DNA from: a virus
Taxonomy: Duplodnaviria; Heunggongvirae; Uroviricota; Caudoviricetes
Direction: 5' to 3' (one strand)
Length of the DNA stretch: 44,580 nucleotides
IMG/VR virus record: IMGVR_UViG_2534682161_000019
The notes beneath the pieces are model-generated. The model had not been told where the DNA came from. It saw only the letters and a list, made by a program, of their open reading frames with translations, and did no database searches. This document shows, piece by piece, positions 1 through 19,414 of this stretch. The position numbers and the translations under genes are program-made. The number at the start of each line of letters is the position of its first letter. Within the stretch, counting starts at the first letter, position 1.

Positions 1-390
1 ATGCGTTACCTTTCATCGGTGAAAATAAGCGTACAACAACTATTTATGCTGGCATTAGCGATGATAGTTATTGGTTCTTTCGGAGTGTGTTTATTTGTTT
101 ACTATATTTTTATCGATAATTGATATTTTTTTTGGGTATTAAAACAGAGTGGCGCAAACGAAAATATAAATTCGCTATAAAGACGGGGGTGAGTATTAAA
201 AATAATAACTACTAAGTTAAAATCTTTAAAAGTGTTAAAAACATCACATTTAATTATGTTGGGTACTGGAGAATAACCCGTCGTTTTGTTAAAAATAATT
301 TCGCATGATGAATCCCCCTGTGCGGAGGGGCAATCAGCAAGCAGGAATATGGATAATCGCGGATTCAGGTGCTGATACTGAACTCACCGG

Positions 391-810
391 GTGACACCCG
401 GCGCCATGCAGATGATGAAAGTGATGAGTATACCTGCCCCTCTCCGGAGGGGCTTTTTTATAGGCGAACGGATTTCAACCACAATTTATGAGGCTGCGCA
501 ACTGCGTGGCCTTTTTCGTTTTGCGGGCTGCGGTTCCCCTCTTTTGATTCTCCGTGTAACCGGAGATATTGCGAATACGTATGTGCTTAACGGTAACAGT
601 GTGTATATACCTGCCCAGGTATTTACCATGAATCTGGTGATGCTGGGTAGTGCTGAACACCTGTACTTTAACGGTAACGAGCAAACACCAGTTTTCTCTG
701 CGATCCTTTCGAGGATACAGACAGTGTCTGGAGCGGCAGAAATCCGGGGTATGGTGACGACAGTTACAGACCAGTCTGCATCGCAATCTGGATCAAAGTA
801 TTCAGGCTGA
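391..810 (+). CDS. hypothetical protein, probably a remnant gene of a degraded neighbouring prophage
   Basis: 139-aa ORF in the six-frame track; no motif I recognise; lies just upstream of a truncated lom-like fragment. Confidence 0.25.
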   Translation: MTPGAMQMMKVMSIPAPLRRGFFIGERISTTIYEAAQLRGLFRFAGCGSPLLILRVTGDIANTYVLNGNSVYIPAQVFTMNLVMLGSAEHLYFNGNEQTPVFSAILSRIQTVSGAAEIRGMVTTVTDQSASQSGSKYSG

Positions 811-886
811 ATGCGGGGACACCCGTGACGGTGTCGGTTTCAGGTAATGCAGTGACGGTTATCTGGATGTCGAAGGCGTAAACACG

Positions 887-1170
887 ATGAAGATGCCACA
901 ACTACCGGCAAAACTGAGTGCCGGGTATCTTCATGCCCGTTCTGATATGTCCGGCAGTGATGATTTAACCGGGTTCAATGTGAAATACCGCTATGAATTT
1001 ACGGACACGCTGGGGCTGGTGACGTCATTCAGCTATGCAGGAGACAGGAATCGCCTGCTTACCCGTTACAGTTATACCCGCTGGCATGAAGACTCCGTGC
1101 GTAACTGCTAATTCAGCATGATGGCGGGTGTGGCTTACAGCCGTGTTTCCACCTTCTCCGGGGATTCGTA
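887..1170 (+). pseudogene. lom: truncated Lom/Ail/PagC-family outer-membrane protein gene fragment
   Basis: 74-aa ORF (887-1111) with ...[37 protein letters not shown] almost identical to the interior of the intact Lom at 41239-41838, then a frame break and a further ...MAGVAYSRVSTFSGD piece; the N-terminal signal peptide and C-terminal beta-strands are missing. Confidence 0.7.
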
Positions 1171-1325
1171 ATTAGCTTGCTAAGCATGCGATGTCAGGCT
1201 GATTAGTGAAGTGATGTTGTTCGCATTTTGTCAGGGAGGGGGTATTGAGACTTTTTTGGAGAGTAGAGATCTGGTGTGGTTGTAAAAATTGTTGTTGGCA
1301 TTGAGAGCTGAAAATATACCAGGCT

Positions 1326-1359
1326 CTAAAAAACTAAGGGGTTACCATTTGGTAACCCC
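1326..1359 (-). terminator. rho-independent terminator-like hairpin downstream of the tRNA-Ser 3-prime fragment
   Basis: Perfect inverted repeat GGGGTTACC-ATTT-GGTAACCCC (1338-1359) followed on the minus strand by a T-run (A-run 1327-1332 on plus). Confidence 0.5.
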
Positions 1360-1369
1360 TTATCTTATT

Positions 1370-1429
1370 TGGCGGAAGCGCAGAGATTCGAACTCTGGAA
1401 CCCTTTCGGGTCGCCGGTTTTCAAGACCG
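1370..1429 (-). other. 60-nt 3-prime fragment of a tRNA-Ser gene (serT-like), putative prophage attachment-site remnant (attL side)
   Basis: Reverse complement reads CGGTCTTGAAAACCGGCGACCCGAAAGGGTTCCAGAGTTCGAATCTCTGCGCTTCCGCCA, which matches the anticodon-stem-to-CCA part of E. coli serT as I remember it; the 5-prime half of the tRNA is absent (sequence beyond 1429 is unrelated); integrase lies 140 bp away. Confidence 0.7.
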
Positions 1430-1569
1430 AAGAAAAATAAAGAAAAATCAGTATAATACGCAAAATAGCCGAAAAGTTAATCAGACTTAACACCAAGAAA
1501 AATCAAGATGTTAGGGAGTTATTCAGAGTTAATATACCAGGTCTTTTGCCAGAAAATTTTCTGGATTGT

Positions 1570-2589
1570 CTACTTACTGACCACAAGCGGCAAATCCAGT
1601 GTTGGCGTGATTTTGGTTTTACGATCGTAAATCAACACCTGATTTTCTGTTTTGTGTCCACTGAAAATTTGTTTGTCGCGACTGCTGCCTTCGTAATCTG
1701 AAATTCCTTTGGCTTTTATGTCATGGAAGTTGCACCCAAACGGAACACCGGCTTTTTGCTCGGCTGCACGTTTAGCCTGATTCCACCAGTTGTTCAGCGT
1801 TTTAGCTATGACCTTCCCGCCTTTGGTTGTGTTGATCACATACTCGCATGTGCCGGAAGATACATTTCGGGCTAACTGGATCGCCGTACGTAATCGTGGA
1901 GACCATTCCTTGATTTGTTTGGTGCCGGTCTTGTTTTGCTCAATGTAAATCCCTTTGTCCATAATATCCTGCCATTTCAGCTCGAGCACATCACCGAGCC
2001 TTGCCGCACAGAGATAGGATATCTCCATTGCAATACGTAACTGTGGAATTGCTTCCGCATATATCGCAGCATACTGTTCATCGGTGATGTAAACAGTACG
2101 GGCTTTAAGCGTGAATTTTCTGACTCCTTTGCATGGATTATTTTTCACATACCCACGCTCATATCCCCATCCGTATACGCGACTCAGACTTGCCAGTTCA
2201 TGGTTTGCCTGGGTCTTGCTCTCAAGCCCCCGCTTATCCATGAAAATTCTTACCTGCTCAATTTTTACATTATCAGCAAGCATTTTCCCGAATACCGCCA
2301 GTAATGCCCTTTGATGTTGCCGATAATCTTTTTGGGTTCGGGGGGCCAGTTCTGTAAATGCAGGGGAGTCCATAAACATGTGCCATAATTTAGCTACGGT
2401 CATTATGTCGTGGAGTTTTGCCTTTTCCAGTTCATAATTTTGCCAGACTTTAGCCACGCTGGTTTCCCGCACTCTTCCTAGCTTTATCGTCCTTGTGCTT
2501 CCTTTGGGCTTCCATACGTAACTGTAACCATTCGATCTAACGCGCGGTGGCAGTACATTATCTTTTTTGTCTTTTCTTGGTCTTCCCAT
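1570..2589 (-). CDS. int: tyrosine site-specific integrase (lambda Int family)
   Basis: 339 aa; C-terminal ...FHDIKAKGISDYEGS...FSGHKTENQVLIYDRK resembles the lambda Int catalytic region (GHKSDTMASQYRDDR); adjacent to tRNA fragment; overlaps the xis-like ORF. Confidence 0.9.
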   Translation of the reverse strand: MGRPRKDKKDNVLPPRVRSNGYSYVWKPKGSTRTIKLGRVRETSVAKVWQNYELEKAKLHDIMTVAKLWHMFMDSPAFTELAPRTQKDYRQHQRALLAVFGKMLADNVKIEQVRIFMDKRGLESKTQANHELASLSRVYGWGYERGYVKNNPCKGVRKFTLKARTVYITDEQYAAIYAEAIPQLRIAMEISYLCAARLGDVLELKWQDIMDKGIYIEQNKTGTKQIKEWSPRLRTAIQLARNVSSGTCEYVINTTKGGKVIAKTLNNWWNQAKRAAEQKAGVPFGCNFHDIKAKGISDYEGSSRDKQIFSGHKTENQVLIYDRKTKITPTLDLPLVVSK

Positions 2590-2809
2590 TATTCAGTGCC
2601 TCAAAATCGGGTTCAGCAGAAACCAGTTCAGATACTTTTGACATTGCTGTTAGTCCACGTGGAATATCACAGCGTAGAACTATCGGCTCGTTTTTAGGCC
2701 CGATTAAAAATGGGATGCCGTGCAGTCTTAACTGGTGTTGCTGTCTTGTGTATCGCTTGTATTTCGTGATCTCTTGAATCTCTGCTGGCGATAGAGTTAA
2801 TTCATACAT
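2558..2809 (-). CDS. xis: putative excisionase / small DNA-binding protein
   Basis: 83-aa basic ORF immediately upstream of and overlapping the int start, the canonical xis position; sequence itself not confidently recognised. Confidence 0.5.
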   Translation of the reverse strand: MYELTLSPAEIQEITKYKRYTRQQHQLRLHGIPFLIGPKNEPIVLRCDIPRGLTAMSKVSELVSAEPDFEALNNGKTKKRQKR

Positions 2810-2875
2810 GTGGTCACATGCCTTACAGCATGACCGCCGCCAATATAATTCGGAGGCGGCGATCAGGGTTGAACA

Positions 2876-5359
2876 TTAAAAATCAGCCTGACTCGGGATC
2901 AGTTTTTGTATTGTAGCTGTAACGTATTTTGCCTGGTGACGGGCGTCATCCAGTGCATTGTGGTGCACGCCTTCGAATGGAATAACGGTTCTGGCATCAA
3001 AGTCGATTGTTTTTCCCAGCTCAACGATTGTGCGTACATCGCGATCGTTGTGGTAGCGCCACGGGCAGGGGATGTCCAGACGTTCGTATGAGGTGCGCAA
3101 AATTGCGTTATCGAAAGTTGCACCATTACCCCATACCTGAACGAATTTTTCATCTGAGTATTCGTTGATGAACTCCCGAAACCGCGAAAGGGCATCCTTC
3201 AGTTTTACCTGGTCTGTTAAAATGGCAGCTCTGGCTTCACTGGACTGCTTCAGCCACCATTCGATGGTTCCACCGTCAGGAACAGCCCCTGTATTCATTG
3301 CGTCAGTCAGACTGATAACGATATAAAATACTGGCCCGATTTCCCCTGTTTGTGGGTCGAAGAAAACCGCACCAATAACCACGATGGGCGCATTGGTGTT
3401 GGTTCCCATTGTTTCAAGGTCGATCATCAGGTGGTACCACACTCTGCTGGTGGATGTGATAACGTGATGACCGTTCACCGCAATTAAGGGATCTGCCGTC
3501 TCGCCAGTTTCATTATCGCTGGCGTGGTCCTGAGCGCTGCCAGCATTCTCCTTGTGTGGATGTTCAGCGCCTTCCATTTCCTCCGGATCATTTTCCTGAA
3601 CTTCAACCTGATTCTCTTCATCGAATGTTTCCTGGTATGTTGCGTCGCCCATCACCGCACCACAATCAGGGCAGTTGCCGCCGCCGGTCTGACCGCAGGC
3701 GGTGCAGACTTTTTCCGCTTCCTGTTGCGCTACTGGCTCAGGTTGTTTCGTTTCTGGCTCGTTTTGTAACGCATTTGGGCTGTTTTGTTCCGCGTTCTGG
3801 TCGTTCTGTTCCGTTTCTTGCTGGTTCTGATTCACAGAATCGCGGGTTTCAATCCCCTTCACCCATTTCGGATCATTCGGGTCGCTAATCCCTGCAACAA
3901 ATTCACTACGTGATACAGCAAGCAACTTATCGGCGTCAGGCTGGCTGATATTGGCTGCCTGCATAATTTTGTTTACTTCGTCAGCGGTAACTTTTACCGG
4001 CTCCGGTTGTGCGATCGTGTCAGATGCACCAGTATTTTGTTGTGAACCTGAGTATGTACCGTTTTTGCGGGCAAAATATTCTTCTTTCGTGATTTCAGTA
4101 GCCCCTGCAGCCAGCGCCTTATTCAGACCAGAAAGTTTGTTTGCACGACCGTATTTTTCGCCATCCTTGTCGGTGAAGAGGAAGTAGAACGGCCCCTCAC
4201 GCTCTACAGATGATTCGACTTCCACTTTGCATTCGGTTTTTTCGTTGTCGTGAATTGCCGTTTCCACTGCGTCAGTTTCTGGTACTGGCGACGAGAGAGT
4301 ATTAGCTGTGCCCTGATTTGTTCCTTCGTCATCTTCAAACACGCCCTTTGTAGTCAGGTATTCAGTGATGTATTTGTTCAGTGCCACGGGATCTTTGTGA
4401 ATGTCGATCGGGCGTTCACGGACAAGGCCAAAAATAGTCTGGCGGCTGTAGCGAAGCGCATCAGGTTGTTTGCGCATTGATGCGGAGATGCGCTTCCAGT
4501 CTTCGCGATCTCTGGCGATAACTTCATTTTTAGCCCAGCGAAGGATGCTGCCGTCAATGTTTCCGGCATCCGCATCACCAGGCCAGAGATAGTAGGCCAG
4601 CTCCCTGTCCAGGGTTTTCCATGTCTGCTTGTATTCGCGATGAATGGCGGCAGTTACAGGAGGGATTTTTTCTGCTGGGTTTTCAGTGTGCTGTCGGTTG
4701 GCTTTGGCGCGGGCAAGATCAACAACAGACGTGTATTTTCCAGTCTCTTTGCGCTCTGCGTCCTGCCGTTTTTTCCAGTTACGTAATTCAACCTGAATTT
4801 CGGGCCATTTGGTACCCGGCTTACATTTGTGTTTAACCCATCCGATAGCGAACAGTTTGCGTTCCGGATACATAGCGTTAATTTCAGGCGTTTTCATCAG
4901 TGCTTCAACGATATGCCCGTCAAAGGTAGCCACGTCTTCTTGCAGTAATTCCTGCGCGTCAATCGCCATATCAACGGTGATGTTTTCACATGTACCGAAC
5001 TTAACCAGGACCGCGTTCTGTACTTCAAGGGACAGCTTGTCAAAATTGACGTTAATAGGATCGGATTCTGGTTCGACCGGAATAAAGGAAGCGGATTCCT
5101 CATCCCAGTGGTTTTCCTGCATATATTCGGTATCCCAGGAGTCGATAGCAGGGCGGGGCATGCCGGGTTTATCTTCGCAGACAAGAAATTTATAAGCGCA
5201 GTCCTGAGCAGCAGGATATTGCTCCAGGAATTGCCAGGTAAATTTGGCACGGGCGCGGCGTTCATCACCGGCTTCAATGGCAGTGGCTACAGCAACTGCG
5301 CCCTCTTCTTTTATTGCCTGTTCGTCCGGAATGGCGGCGCAAATAAAGACTTTACTCAT
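2876..5359 (-). CDS. large early-region protein with C-terminal DnaQ-like (DEDDh) 3-prime-5-prime exonuclease domain (type often annotated exodeoxyribonuclease VIII-like in E. coli prophages)
   Basis: 827 aa; C-terminus carries Exo I (MIDLETMGT), Exo II (WGNGATFDNAIL) and Exo III (HHNALDDARH) motifs; Cys4 ribbon CTACGQTGGGNCPDCG; low-complexity Q/N/E-rich linker. Confidence 0.7.
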   Translation of the reverse strand: MSKVFICAAIPDEQAIKEEGAVAVATAIEAGDERRARAKFTWQFLEQYPAAQDCAYKFLVCEDKPGMPRPAIDSWDTEYMQENHWDEESASFIPVEPESDPINVNFDKLSLEVQNAVLVKFGTCENITVDMAIDAQELLQEDVATFDGHIVEALMKTPEINAMYPERKLFAIGWVKHKCKPGTKWPEIQVELRNWKKRQDAERKETGKYTSVVDLARAKANRQHTENPAEKIPPVTAAIHREYKQTWKTLDRELAYYLWPGDADAGNIDGSILRWAKNEVIARDREDWKRISASMRKQPDALRYSRQTIFGLVRERPIDIHKDPVALNKYITEYLTTKGVFEDDEGTNQGTANTLSSPVPETDAVETAIHDNEKTECKVEVESSVEREGPFYFLFTDKDGEKYGRANKLSGLNKALAAGATEITKEEYFARKNGTYSGSQQNTGASDTIAQPEPVKVTADEVNKIMQAANISQPDADKLLAVSRSEFVAGISDPNDPKWVKGIETRDSVNQNQQETEQNDQNAEQNSPNALQNEPETKQPEPVAQQEAEKVCTACGQTGGGNCPDCGAVMGDATYQETFDEENQVEVQENDPEEMEGAEHPHKENAGSAQDHASDNETGETADPLIAVNGHHVITSTSRVWYHLMIDLETMGTNTNAPIVVIGAVFFDPQTGEIGPVFYIVISLTDAMNTGAVPDGGTIEWWLKQSSEARAAILTDQVKLKDALSRFREFINEYSDEKFVQVWGNGATFDNAILRTSYERLDIPCPWRYHNDRDVRTIVELGKTIDFDARTVIPFEGVHHNALDDARHQAKYVTATIQKLIPSQADF

Positions 5360-5452
5360 TTTGTTTTAACCTCATTACAGATTTAAGGGTGAACAAATCC
5401 CTGCCATTGCTGGCATATAAAAATGAAACCGGATATTAATTACGGTGCTGTT

Positions 5453-5644
5453 TTAAAGTCCTGCCGGTATTTCGTTATTATTAGTGTGAGTAGTTTTATC
5501 TACCGGATAACAGTTACCGGGAATTTTTTGTTCTGCTGCTGCAGCCATGCATTCTTTCATTGAACCGTATAAGCCAGTCACCAGCTCAAGAGATTCGCCG
5601 GAAACAAGATAAACTGTCAGAACGAGTGCAAATGTTGTATTCAT
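5453..5644 (-). CDS. hypothetical small protein (hydrophobic N-terminus)
   Basis: 63-aa ORF in the leftward early operon, stop overlapping the next gene start (ATGA). Confidence 0.4.
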   Translation of the reverse strand: MNTTFALVLTVYLVSGESLELVTGLYGSMKECMAAAAEQKIPGNCYPVDKTTHTNNNEIPAGL

Positions 5645-5829
5645 TGTTTATATCCTTTTTGCAGCAGGTCCAGACGAGCCAGCATTGAAGGAATGCATAC
5701 TTCATTTAACAGGTCCTGCTCGAGTTTTCTCTGCTTAATGGCGTCTTCAATAAATGTTTTGTCTCCAGTGATAACGCCAATTTCGAAACGAAGTTCAGAC
5801 GTGATGGCATTACATGATAACTTTTCCAT
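5641..5829 (-). CDS. hypothetical small early protein (RacC-like position)
   Basis: ORF track gives 5641-5934; the internal ATG at 5829 (MEKLSCNAITSELRFEIG...) is preceded by a GAGGA RBS whereas the 5934 start has none, so the shorter start is preferred. Confidence 0.4.
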   Translation of the reverse strand: MEKLSCNAITSELRFEIGVITGDKTFIEDAIKQRKLEQDLLNEVCIPSMLARLDLLQKGYKQ

Positions 5830-6406
5830 TATCGCGTCCTCAACAATGAATTTTGTGATGCGGTGCCTGGTGCCTCCAGGTGACGTTAACCAGTTAACAA
5901 TTAACGCCGGATACAGAGAATCCACCCATAACACTGTTTTTGGTTTTAACTGTTCCGCGTGCGCTGAGCCGCATTCACCGCATCACAAAATTCACTTTTA
6001 AAAAAGGGCGGCAGAGCAGTCACGGAGTAAAACTGATACCGCCAAATGTCACCAGAATATTGATAACAGAGGGCGTTGTAGCGGGGTTGTCACTTAAGCG
6101 TATGGTCAACCTGACAACCCGGTGTCCTCAACGGGGAAAGGCGTCCCTCCCACCCCCGCCATACTTACCGCCGCGCCATTTCGCGGGTCGCCACAACCGG
6201 AAGCGCACGGTCGAATTAAATTTAACGACACCGTGCAGTGAGACGAACTTCGCCGTGCGCTTTCGTGTTGTGTGCCTGCTTTTAACCACGTCAGGCGAGG
6301 TGGTTTCCGTCATTCCCCAACGACAGGAAATCTGTATAATCTGGGTATCCCCAACGATCCAAGGAAATCATATGACAGAGCAAAGAGCACAAGCAGGTGA
6401 TGGTGT

Positions 6407-6613
6407 ATGGACCGGGATGATATTCTTGACAGAATTTTTTATGGCTATTTTCTTGAGCAACTGTTTTCTGTAGCGACTGGTCGTCTCGATAAACTTCTCT
6501 CAGTAGTGAGTATTATCCTCGGTTCATCTGTCATTGGCGGATTCATTCCGGAAATTTCTGGCGTTTTTATTGTTGTGATCGCAACCGTCCAAACGATTTA
6601 TGGATTCGGATAA
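6407..6613 (+). CDS. hypothetical small membrane protein (rightward ORF inside the leftward early region)
   Basis: 68 aa with a long hydrophobic stretch LLSVVSIILGSSVIGGFIPEISGVFIVVIATV; opposite orientation to flanking genes, as sieB is in Rac. Confidence 0.3.
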   Translation: MDRDDILDRIFYGYFLEQLFSVATGRLDKLLSVVSIILGSSVIGGFIPEISGVFIVVIATVQTIYGFG

Positions 6614-12689: not shown

Positions 12690-12762
12690 TGGAAAATGAA
12701 TTCGAAAATGCTATCGCCACGGTGCAGCCAAAATCAATAGTTGAGTAGACTTACTCTGAGGC

Positions 12763-12791
12763 TTGACTACGAGGTTACCATTAGGTGTAAT
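12763..12791 (+). promoter_or_regulatory. sigma70-like promoter upstream of the AT-rich island
   Basis: TTGACT (12763-12768), 17-nt spacer, TGTAAT (12786-12791). Confidence 0.4.
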
Positions 12792-12863
12792 TTAGAGTAA
12801 GTTGGTAGCCTCAGTTGTCGAAGAGGCATAATGGTGATTGTTAGTTGATGCAATAATTAAGGA

Positions 12864-13355
12864 ATGTTAATGCCTACTAATGCTGAACAACCAGTATCAA
12901 TTAGTAAACCGAAGACCGTTACACTTCGTGCTTTTGAAATAAAAAACACTGCACTTTCGAAAAGTTCTAGCGAAGCTAAGGCCGATTTGATAGCAAGGCT
13001 TAGTCAAGTAAAACAGGCAAAAGATAGATGCATGTTGTTAAATCCAGAAGATCCTAAGCAGGAAAGAGATGTTCTTTCGTATTTTAAAGAATCTCCTGTT
13101 ACTGATTCAGTATTTTGCACTATGTTAAGGATTACATCTGACAAAGAAATCCAACACATAACAGATTCTCTTTTTGAGAAAGAGGTCTTTTCTCTGGATG
13201 ATATAGAAACATCTCATTTAGATGTGTCAGCAATATGTAAAGGCCATTACTATTTTTGCATGAGTGATGATTTTTTAGTTACAAATCTCCCATTAAATAA
13301 AACGATTGTGCGTTTACAAACGTATCTGAGTTGGTTTACAAATAATGAGCTTTAA
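12864..13355 (+). CDS. hypothetical protein, first gene of the AT-rich island
   Basis: 163-aa ORF; AAGGA RBS favours the second ATG at 12870; no recognised motif; AT-rich codon usage unlike the surrounding prophage. Confidence 0.5.
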   Translation: MLMPTNAEQPVSISKPKTVTLRAFEIKNTALSKSSSEAKADLIARLSQVKQAKDRCMLLNPEDPKQERDVLSYFKESPVTDSVFCTMLRITSDKEIQHITDSLFEKEVFSLDDIETSHLDVSAICKGHYYFCMSDDFLVTNLPLNKTIVRLQTYLSWFTNNEL

Positions 13356-13370
13356 GAATTCACCCCACTA

Positions 13371-13883
13371 GTGTCAGCAAAAGGGAAAACGAAACTTAGT
13401 GATTTAAAAGCCATAATCGTTAAAGATCCAGAACCGTTAGTACCGACTGCTATGTGTGATGAGTCTGGTGTTAGAAGTAAAAAGGGAGAAATTACGGTTA
13501 GCGAAGGTCATAAATCTATCAAGTTAACACAAAAAGTTCTGGATATTATCAGGAGTTCGATGTCAGACTCTGAACAACTTAATGATATGATGCTGAGTCA
13601 AATGATTTCTGCTGAATTGTTAATAAAATTTAAAAAGCCACGCAGAATGACAGATGATGAATATAGTAGAGCTTTAGGGGCTTATTTGAAACCCGTTAGC
13701 GATCTTGATAATGTATCATTTAAGCGAAAAGATAACAAAACAGAAGTGAAAGGCAAGGATTTGCTGTTAACAAAGTCTGTAAGTATTGAAACGACACAGT
13801 CAGGTAAATTAGTTGAGCATCATTTGCTACAAGAGATGAGCAAGTTTTTGCTAGAGTTAAGCAATGAAAAAAATAGCGGTTAG
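13371..13883 (+). CDS. hypothetical protein, second gene of the AT-rich island (same frame as the first, separated by one TAA)
   Basis: 170-aa ORF with a GTG start and no clear RBS; in-frame continuation of 12864-13355 across the stop at 13353-13355. Confidence 0.45.
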   Translation: MSAKGKTKLSDLKAIIVKDPEPLVPTAMCDESGVRSKKGEITVSEGHKSIKLTQKVLDIIRSSMSDSEQLNDMMLSQMISAELLIKFKKPRRMTDDEYSRALGAYLKPVSDLDNVSFKRKDNKTEVKGKDLLLTKSVSIETTQSGKLVEHHLLQEMSKFLLELSNEKNSG

Positions 13884-14325
13884 CGTATTATCAATATTGC
13901 TGCTCACATTGTTGGCTAGTTCAGTCTGGGATGTTCGTCCGGACGGTTTTTTTGCGTCGACAGTTTTTACAATTTCTGGAATAATGTTCTCAATTGGATT
14001 AGGGCTAATTGTGAATTTTAGCACATCCGGTGTAAGGAACCGTGGATACATTCTGCGTATTAGACGTAATGTAATGAGGGTGAGGAATTCATTTCTATTA
14101 TATTTTGGTTTGTCGACTTTTTCTTACATAGCAAATCAATATCTTACTGCTTTTGAGTTTTCTTTAACCTTTGGTGATGGTATCAAAACATGTTTTAGCG
14201 CATCCATATTCTTTTGCTTGCTTATAATTTATTCCTCTATATATTTTGTTGTTAATTTTATAGAGTTGCAAAAACTCAATAATGATATTTTTGATAAAGT
14301 CAATGCGGAAATAACTAACAAATGA
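13864..14325 (+). CDS. hypothetical integral membrane protein (about 4 TM helices), third gene of the AT-rich island
   Basis: 153 aa; hydrophobic segments SVLSILLLTLLASSVW, VFTISGIMFSIGLGLIVNF, FLLYFGLSTFSYIANQYL, FSASIFFCLLIIYSSIYFVVNFI; overlaps the upstream ORF by 20 nt. Confidence 0.55.
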   Translation: MKKIAVSVLSILLLTLLASSVWDVRPDGFFASTVFTISGIMFSIGLGLIVNFSTSGVRNRGYILRIRRNVMRVRNSFLLYFGLSTFSYIANQYLTAFEFSLTFGDGIKTCFSASIFFCLLIIYSSIYFVVNFIELQKLNNDIFDKVNAEITNK

Positions 14326-14523
14326 AATGGCTTTTGTGTGCATGTTAAATAAAGAATACATGGCATCATTTAATGATGTCATGTGTAACGAGCGAAAAGC
14401 CTTTTGAACGGTTTTCATAAGTTATATTGAAAGATAAAATTGCTGCGGGTGCTTGAGGCTATCTGCCTCAGGCATGAACACCAACGGCAGATAGATAAAA
14501 GCCCCACCCGACTATAAATCGAA

Positions 14524-14742
14524 GTGAGGCCCCTATATGCTCGTCACATACAGATTGCCTCTTACGGACCGAAAGGTCAAGGAGAAGCAGGCTATGAAGC
14601 AGCAAAAGGCGATGCTAATCGCCCTGATCGTCATCTGTTTAACCGTCATAGTGACGGCACTGGTAACGAGGAAAGACCTCTGCGAGGTACGAATCCGAAC
14701 CGGCCAGACGGAGGTCGCTGTCTTCACAGCTTACGAACCTGA
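14524..14742 (+). CDS. mok: mok-like overlapping reading frame of the hok toxin locus
   Basis: 72-aa ORF starting upstream of hok and overlapping it in another frame, ending 7 nt before the hok stop. Confidence 0.5.
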   Translation: MRPLYARHIQIASYGPKGQGEAGYEAAKGDANRPDRHLFNRHSDGTGNEERPLRGTNPNRPDGGRCLHSLRT

Positions 14743-14749
14743 GGAGTAA
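14594..14749 (+). CDS. hok: Hok/Gef-family type I toxin (HokD/RelF-like)
   Basis: 51-aa product MKQQKAMLIALIVICLTVIVTALVTRKDLCEVRIRTGQTEVAVFTAYEPEE: single TM helix plus conserved C-terminus; matches HokD as I recall it. Confidence 0.85.
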   Translation: MKQQKAMLIALIVICLTVIVTALVTRKDLCEVRIRTGQTEVAVFTAYEPEE

Positions 14750-14915
14750 GAGACCTGGCGGGGAGAATTCCCTCGCCACCTCTGATGTGTCAGGCTTCCT
14801 CAACGCACCCGCACTTAACCCGCTTCGGTGGGTTTTGTTTTTTCTGTGCATTCTGGTTTACAATTCGCACGCCAGCCTGAACAACTGGCACCTGCTGCGC
14901 CAGCAGAGACAACCG

Positions 14916-19260: not shown

Positions 19261-19336
<76 letters not shown>

Positions 19337-19339
19337 TAT

Positions 19340-19414
<75 letters not shown>

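Follow-up and report, generated by a model that had tools for sequence, protein, structure and literature searches.

The hok toxin gene is located on the plus strand at positions 14594-14749 of the window, which is the whole 44,580-nucleotide stretch of viral DNA that was analysed, and encodes a small protein of 51 amino acids preceded by the Shine-Dalgarno (SD) sequence AAGGAG at 14579-14584 (+). It belongs to what is very probably an intact hok/sok module, composed of a killer peptide and an antisense RNA and regulated in the manner of plasmid R1. An earlier note on this DNA had assigned the 51-aa frame to the Hok family, which is borne out by its match to Pfam PF01848 HOK_GEF (E 1.2e-23, 82.9 bits with a cut-off of 22) and by its 100% identity to HokD/RelF of E. 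coli K-12. In an alignment of related loci, 30, 24 and 45 of the 51 columns are variable at codon positions 1, 2 and 3 respectively, and judged by this third-position signature the hok ORF is under purifying selection. The Tyr47 codon of hok lies within a UACG motif (TTACGAA, window 14732-14735), the sequence recognised by the tRNA deaminase TadA; all 34 aligned loci have TACGAA, and nearly all have the T before it. The hokD mRNA of K-12 is reported to be approximately 6% A-to-I edited, which recodes Tyr to Cys (PMC12214031). HokD, with its identical peptide, has been used as a toxic control (bioRxiv 10.1101/2025.08.07.668861), and Hok is presumed to be toxic in this strain as well.

The mok-equivalent ORF of 70 aa spans 14537-14749 (+) in the same frame as hok, which it overlaps, and starts upstream of it with an SD of its own (GAGG, 14526-14529 (+), 7 nt 5' of the start codon and invariant in the alignments). 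The start ATG at 14537 is invariant as TATATG/ATGC in the alignments of related loci. Nearly all loci have an ATG 56-58 nt 5' of the hok ATG that opens an ORF of about 68-70 codons, in most of them in the hok frame and in the rest in the +1 frame, and the annotation of K-12 mokC, which has its stop codon in common with hokC, provides a parallel. The mok-like frame that had been proposed at 14524-14742 does exist mechanically as an ORF with a GTG start, but it is not mok, as the conserved start is ATG 14537 in the hok frame. GTG 14524 was rejected as the mok start because among 37 related loci the ORF that it opens is open in the window only; it also overlaps the GAGG that serves the conserved ATG. 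Choosing the start of mok by ORF length is misleading, and it is the conserved ATG and not the longest ORF that is relevant. In the 19 codons that belong to mok only, 12, 13 and 9 of 19 columns are variable at the three codon positions and there is no bias. The absence of codon bias here and the third-position bias in hok imply that hok is selected as a protein, whereas the mok leader is selected as an RNA or merely for being translated. By analogy with R1, translation of hok would be coupled to that of mok.

Predicted structure of the hok mRNA

The hok mRNA is predicted to be approximately 400 nt in length (14447-14846, +), which follows from a promoter-like site at one end and the only convincing plus-strand terminator nearby at the other. 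A promoter scan found TTTTCA and TAAAAT separated by 17 nt at 14412-14440 (+), with a predicted transcription start at about 14447. The promoter matches the consensus at 9 of 12 positions and ends 6 nt before a conserved GGGUGC; hokC-type and Photorhabdus loci likewise have their -10 box 6 nt before a conserved GGG(U/C)GC. The 5' end of the mRNA corresponds to position 1 of the Rfam model RF01794, and its 3' end to an intrinsic terminator at 14817-14846 (+) which consists of a 7-bp stem (14817-14834) and a following T run. The mRNA is presumably both transcribed and processed in this strain. Between the immunity region and Q this is the only clear intrinsic terminator on the plus strand, weaker candidates being found at 13924 and 16357, both inside ORFs; since it is the sole clear one, it may double as a nin-region terminator upstream of Q.

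RF01794 matches the window in full length at 14447-14596 on the hok sense strand (102.9 bits, E 2.2e-22, gathering score 59), far beyond chance, and so confirms the structured upstream leader that had been noticed. The very 5' end is occupied by the translational activator element tac (GGGUGCUUGAGG, 14447-14458, +), which in the MFE structure of the full-length mRNA pairs with the fold-back inhibition element fbi (CCUCAACGCACCC, 14798-14810, +) and in that of the 59-nt leader with the upstream complementary box ucb (AAGCCCC, 14499-14505, +). The latter is a putative anti-SD of mok and pairs either with the mok SD region or with tac. In the full-length MFE structure the mok start codon forms part of the Sok target hairpin (14533-14553, +), which has the loop CUCGUCA at 14540-14546. 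Further downstream, the box GCCUCUUAC (14557-14565, +) complements the mok SD (GAGGC). Its partner in the closed MFE fold is the hok SD region, and it is invariant except for a single-base difference in one locus. This near-invariant box is likely to represent dcb, an assignment that is modelled on R1 (PMC9841398).

The full-length mRNA has an MFE of -157.8 kcal/mol (z -7.4), and its fold, in which tac is closed by fbi and ucb masks the mok SD region, is the inert closed form known from plasmid R1 (PMC9841398). A metastable hairpin of -19.6 kcal/mol with an 11-bp stem is adopted by the first 34 nt; in the nascent transcript it would extend over 14449-14475 (+). The hairpin TGAGGC-TATCT-GCCTCA reported by the earlier note is real and forms the core of this stem, and its position, given there as approximately 14452-14470, is now exactly 14454-14470 (TGAGGC 14454-14459, TATCT 14460-14464, GCCTCA 14465-14470). 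For the first 59 nt, the MFE structure is the tac/ucb stem, the same as in the Rfam consensus. Folding of 3'-truncated mRNAs with ViennaRNA gives the tac/ucb conformer as the MFE when they end at 14760-14780. When the mRNA ends at 14796, the MFE is the closed form with tac/ucb 1.3 kcal/mol above it, and tac/ucb was not found as the MFE for ends at 14790-14805.

A total of 53 related loci from Escherichia, Shigella, Kluyvera, Citrobacter, Pseudocitrobacter, Pantoea, Photorhabdus and others were gathered, of which 34 were aligned for the analysis of covariation. Across these 34 loci the MFE structure of the window is paired in 86.9% of cells, compared to about 43% (40-47%) in slid controls, and 35 of its pairs are compensatory in that both sides have changed. 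Three such pairs are located in the tac/fbi helix, which is 90.1% paired and provides the long-range closure of the mRNA. The metastable 5' hairpin, scored separately, is 95.7% paired and has 3 compensatory pairs. Position 14450, which is either U or C, covaries with both of its partners: with that in fbi it forms U-A in 22 loci and C-G in 9, and with that in the metastable hairpin U-A in 22 and C-G in 10. Two alternative partners thus constrain a single position, which provides direct evidence that the mRNA switches between conformations. No variation is seen in the tac/ucb pairs (99.2% paired), and their covariation is therefore uninformative.

The predicted Sok antisense RNA

The earlier note had expected a Sok-like RNA on the minus strand within 14480-14600, and this can now be delimited by homology to sokC, the position of the sokW -10 box and a strand-specific hairpin. 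When the annotated sokC of K-12 is carried over through the alignment it falls on 14545-14491 of the minus strand, which predicts an RNA of approximately 49-55 nt that starts at about 14545 and stops at about 14497-14491. The putative promoter (14552-14580, -) is composed of a -35 box TTGACC (14580-14575), a 17-nt spacer and a -10 box CAATCT (14557-14552). It overlaps the hok SD region and leaves 6 nt between the -10 box and the G at 14545. All 37 loci share this layout, the variants of the -10 box being TAATCT, TAACCT, CACTCT and others, and the -10 box is found at the position of the sokW -10 TAACCT which was mutated to silence sokW (primers YO-421/422, PMC8621323). With only two of six consensus matches the -10 box is weak and of the same class as in the annotated sokC; it is for this reason that the promoter (7 of 12 matches) stayed below the threshold of a strict sigma-70 scan. 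A strict terminator scan likewise failed to pick up the bulged Sok hairpin. As both scans missed Sok, its placement relies on homology and comparative folding.

The terminator hairpin of Sok was identified at 14500-14531 (-) as the RNAalifold consensus of 22 antisense sequences; it comprises 13 pairs (14531-14500), 4 of which are compensatory, and is followed by a U run at 14500-14497. The hairpin includes an invariant U-G pair and a G-U pair in 19 of the 22 loci, both of which would read as A-C mismatches if the sense strand were folded instead. In agreement with this strand specificity, the MFE of the Sok region is -22.1 kcal/mol (z -4.3) on the minus strand and -8.3 kcal/mol (z -1.1) on the plus strand, and the antisense strand folds more stably in 37 of 37 homologous loci, by a mean of 10.7 kcal/mol. 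Sok is predicted to begin with GACGAG, which complements the loop CUCGUCA in the hairpin around the mok start codon. The 5' tail is hypervariable across loci with the exception of GCAU, the complement of the mok AUGC, which fits a role of the tail as specificity determinant. Judged by its sequence, the locus thus has a predicted antisense RNA that possesses a promoter and a terminator hairpin of its own and is complementary to the start of mok.

RF01794 was considered and rejected as evidence for the strand or the ends of Sok, given that its K-12 match is on the hokC strand and sokC is annotated on the opposite one. The search of Rfam for Sok and hok elements accordingly found the hok leader but did not locate Sok itself, because the model named sok matches the hok sense strand and does not place the antisense gene. 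Three independent loci have this sense-strand match, namely the window, K-12 hokC and an R1-type plasmid. The model, which is labelled sok antitoxin, describes the sense hok leader from the 5' end of the mRNA to the hok AUG, and pipelines that use it to place the antitoxin get the strand of "sok" wrong.

Prophage context, proposed mechanism and alternatives

The locus is carried by a lambda-like (lambdoid) E. coli prophage, and the flanking genes fit the earlier proposal of a hok/sok toxin-antitoxin locus inside a prophage. On the left side, sequences that match window 1-6500 carry integrase, exonuclease and dicB genes, and the DicF sRNA is found in the dicB region at 6006-6057 (-, 77 bits). 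A rem-like ORF, a DUF968/YdfU protein, RusA and the Q antiterminator follow 3' of hok, and the gene order hok-rem-ydfU is common to the window and the Qin prophage of K-12. E. coli N96 is 99.9% identical to window 1-6500, and its hok neighbourhood differs from that of the window by an ImmA/IrrE and HTH insert. Other features of the prophage are a match to the STnc100 sRNA near the left end (273-465, +, 111.7 bits) and two phage-borne tRNA genes 3' of Q (19261-19333 and 19340-19411, +).

Directly 5' of hok, window 12700-14440 is AT-rich with a GC content of 29-38%, compared to about 50% around it. This block contains a 337-codon frame (12864-13883) that is broken by an in-frame TAA at 13353-13355, followed by a hydrophobic ORF of 153 aa (13864-14325). 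No match to these ORFs was found in Pfam, PHROGs, PADLOC or NCBIfam, and the block may constitute an uncharacterised moron or defence cargo. Its DNA occurs in just one of 5426 complete E. coli genomes, OkiPb01695 (locus L001), in which a T replaces the A at 13354 and the 337-aa frame is intact. The hok gene of OkiPb01695 is annotated as frameshifted (L001 6195-6361), so that this genome and the window display reverse patterns.

The hok/sok system and its location in prophages are both already known, and the locus is real but ordinary since near-identical copies exist in thousands of E. coli genomes. A query with the 461-bp locus matches 4713 of the 5426 complete genomes, and 3500 have a copy that covers at least 80% of it. 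The top matches are about 97% identical and annotated as hokD, and PPompW prophages contain a copy of 97.8% identity annotated as "gef: phage maintenance protein". In RefSeq the annotation of such loci is limited to the Hok CDS. The hok/sok system is a textbook one and hok genes were previously reported to be about four-fold enriched in prophages (bioRxiv 10.1101/2025.08.07.668861), and the locus therefore adds little new biology.

The following mechanism is proposed by analogy with the R1 model (PMC9841398). The weak promoter at 14412-14440 would give rise to a stable hok mRNA of approximately 400 nt, the 5' tac of which would be held in the metastable hairpin while the transcript is nascent. 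In the complete transcript tac would pair with the 3' fbi and ucb would mask the mok SD, allowing neither translation nor binding of Sok. Slow trimming from the 3' end would then take off fbi and cause tac to switch to ucb, thereby exposing the ribosome-binding site of mok and the target hairpin. Sok, a short and unstable RNA synthesised from the convergent promoter at 14580-14552, would pair with the mok start region (14533-14553), block translation of mok and, via translational coupling, that of hok, and mark the duplex for RNase III. Once the synthesis of Sok is halted, the processed hok mRNA would be translated and the 51-aa Hok would damage the inner membrane.

The biological role of the module may be to stabilise the prophage or, by analogy with hokW-sokW of Sakai prophage 5 (Sp5), to accelerate lysis upon induction; the blocking of other phages is a further candidate. 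In Sp5, HokW is toxic and is neutralised by sokW, treatment with mitomycin C leads, in a RecA-dependent manner, to the disappearance of sokW and the induction of HokW, and deletion of hokW-sokW halves the release of phage (PMC8621323). The locus of the window is co-directional with the early-right operon, in which it is situated between replication/nin-type genes and rem-ydfU-rusA-Q. As Sok is convergent, this arrangement raises the idea that the locus is wired into prophage induction: read-through transcription would silence the Sok promoter head-on and generate a 5'-extended hok mRNA without a free 5' tac, so that Hok would serve as an auxiliary lysis timer. This idea is doubtful, but if true it would explain why, in Sp5, sokW RNA is lost in a RecA-dependent manner and HokW appears (PMC8621323).

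A rival explanation is that the locus is a structurally intact but silent relic which is carried along with the prophage and produces no Hok under any condition. K-12 hokD is devoid of the entire leader, hok is annotated as frameshifted in the sole complete genome that shares the upstream block, the hok promoter is only a 9/12 match, and the chromosomal hok/sok loci of E. coli, which have likewise been argued to be relics, failed at post-segregational killing in earlier work (summarised in bioRxiv 10.1101/2025.08.07.668861 and PMC12214031). However, all regulatory elements of the window locus are intact, compensatory changes testify to constraint at the RNA level, the hok ORF is under purifying selection, and hokW-sokW, a close relative that also resides in a prophage, is functional and influences the release of phage (PMC8621323). 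A silent relic is thus improbable. A second rival holds that the degenerate -10 box supports no synthesis of Sok, in which case hok would be silenced by mRNA folding and its weak promoter alone. In its favour are a -10 box CAATCT where most relatives have TAATCT or TAACCT and the failure of the strict scan to detect the promoter, but the -10 box of K-12 sokC (CACTCT) is equally poor and combined with the same TTGACC and 17-nt spacer, yet sokC is an annotated RNA gene. The minus-strand terminator hairpin has moreover been kept together with its strand-specific G-U pairs, and selection should act against a hok that is unrepressed while its mok start is intact, which makes a locus without Sok very unlikely. 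Lastly, the minus-strand ORFs at 14533-14727 and 14468-14605 exist mechanically, but the chance that the conservation reflects a protein gene on that strand and not an RNA-regulated hok is negligible, as it is in the plus-strand hok frame that third codon positions vary most, the Pfam match belongs to the plus-strand product and the leader is conserved as RNA pairing, not as codons.

Comparison with known hok/sok loci

The intact hok/sok module proposed here has counterparts for all the elements of hok/sok (parB) of plasmid R1, including tac, fbi, ucb, dcb, the metastable hairpin, mok and Sok (PMC9841398). As in the window, the R1 Sok promoter overlaps the hok SD region (PMC9841398). R1 Hok shares 42% identity with Hok of the window over 45 residues, and unlike the window the R1-type leader has an extra insertion in the 5' stem. 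The two loci also differ in their setting: R1 is a plasmid that is stabilised via post-segregational killing, whereas the locus of the window resides in a prophage.

The hokC/sokC locus of K-12 (gef) resembles that of the window in several aspects. Its Sok promoter is of the same class (TTGACC, a 17-nt spacer and a -10 box beginning with C), mok and hok share one frame, the Sok hairpin is likewise short, and the leaders are of similar length (147 nt in hokC/sokC and 150 nt in the window). The hokC peptide, on the other hand, is a different paralogue with 82% identity to Hok of the window. The K-12 hokC copy (L018) diverges at the 3' end where fbi would be expected, with IS186 annotated adjacent to it, and hokC/sokC is located in a chromosomal islet and not in a prophage.

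The hokW-sokW locus of Sp5 in E. coli O157:H7 is likewise a hok/sok locus of a lambdoid prophage with a 51-aa Hok, and its leader architecture and the position of its Sok -10 box are the same as in the window (PMC8621323). A HokW-like copy (L015) is 90% identical to Hok of the window and ends in FVDYESRK instead of FTAYEPEE. The Sok hairpin of the window is approximately 21 nt shorter than that of hokW-type loci, and the single-stranded 5' tail of Sok is GACGAGCAUAUAGGGG in the window and GUUCAGCAUGGAUUGAG in the hokW type. The promoters differ in both boxes, with a -10 of CAATCT in the window and TAACCT in hokW and a -35 of TTGACC and TTGCCT, respectively. In addition, sokW is backed by experiment, whereas Sok of the window is predicted from sequence. 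The identical HokD peptide is found with two Sok cassettes, one with the short hairpin, as in the window (14505-14545) and PPompW, and one with a hokW-type hairpin that is about 21 nt longer, as in three E. coli loci (L006, L007 and L010); the 5' tails differ as well. This suggests a modular exchange of the antitoxin-recognition region. In a milder reading, HokD would be linked to exchangeable Sok cassettes with short or long hairpins, permitting several prophage copies to coexist in the same cell without cross-talk.

Another relative of the window locus is hokD (relF) of the cryptic Qin prophage of K-12. Its coding region and 3' UTR, together with fbi and the terminator, hardly differ from those of the window, and its downstream neighbours, rem and ydfU, are the same. 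Just 5' of the hok SD the homology ends and is replaced by relBE, and for this reason K-12 hokD has no tac, ucb, mok, Sok target or Sok gene. The loss of the leader agrees with the report that K-12 hokD lost canonical components through rearrangement (PMC12214031). Base-level coordinates are now given for Sok, mok and all elements of the hok mRNA in a complete hokD-type locus, which K-12 lacks, and their value is chiefly for annotation. The window contains the complete version of the K-12 hokD locus.
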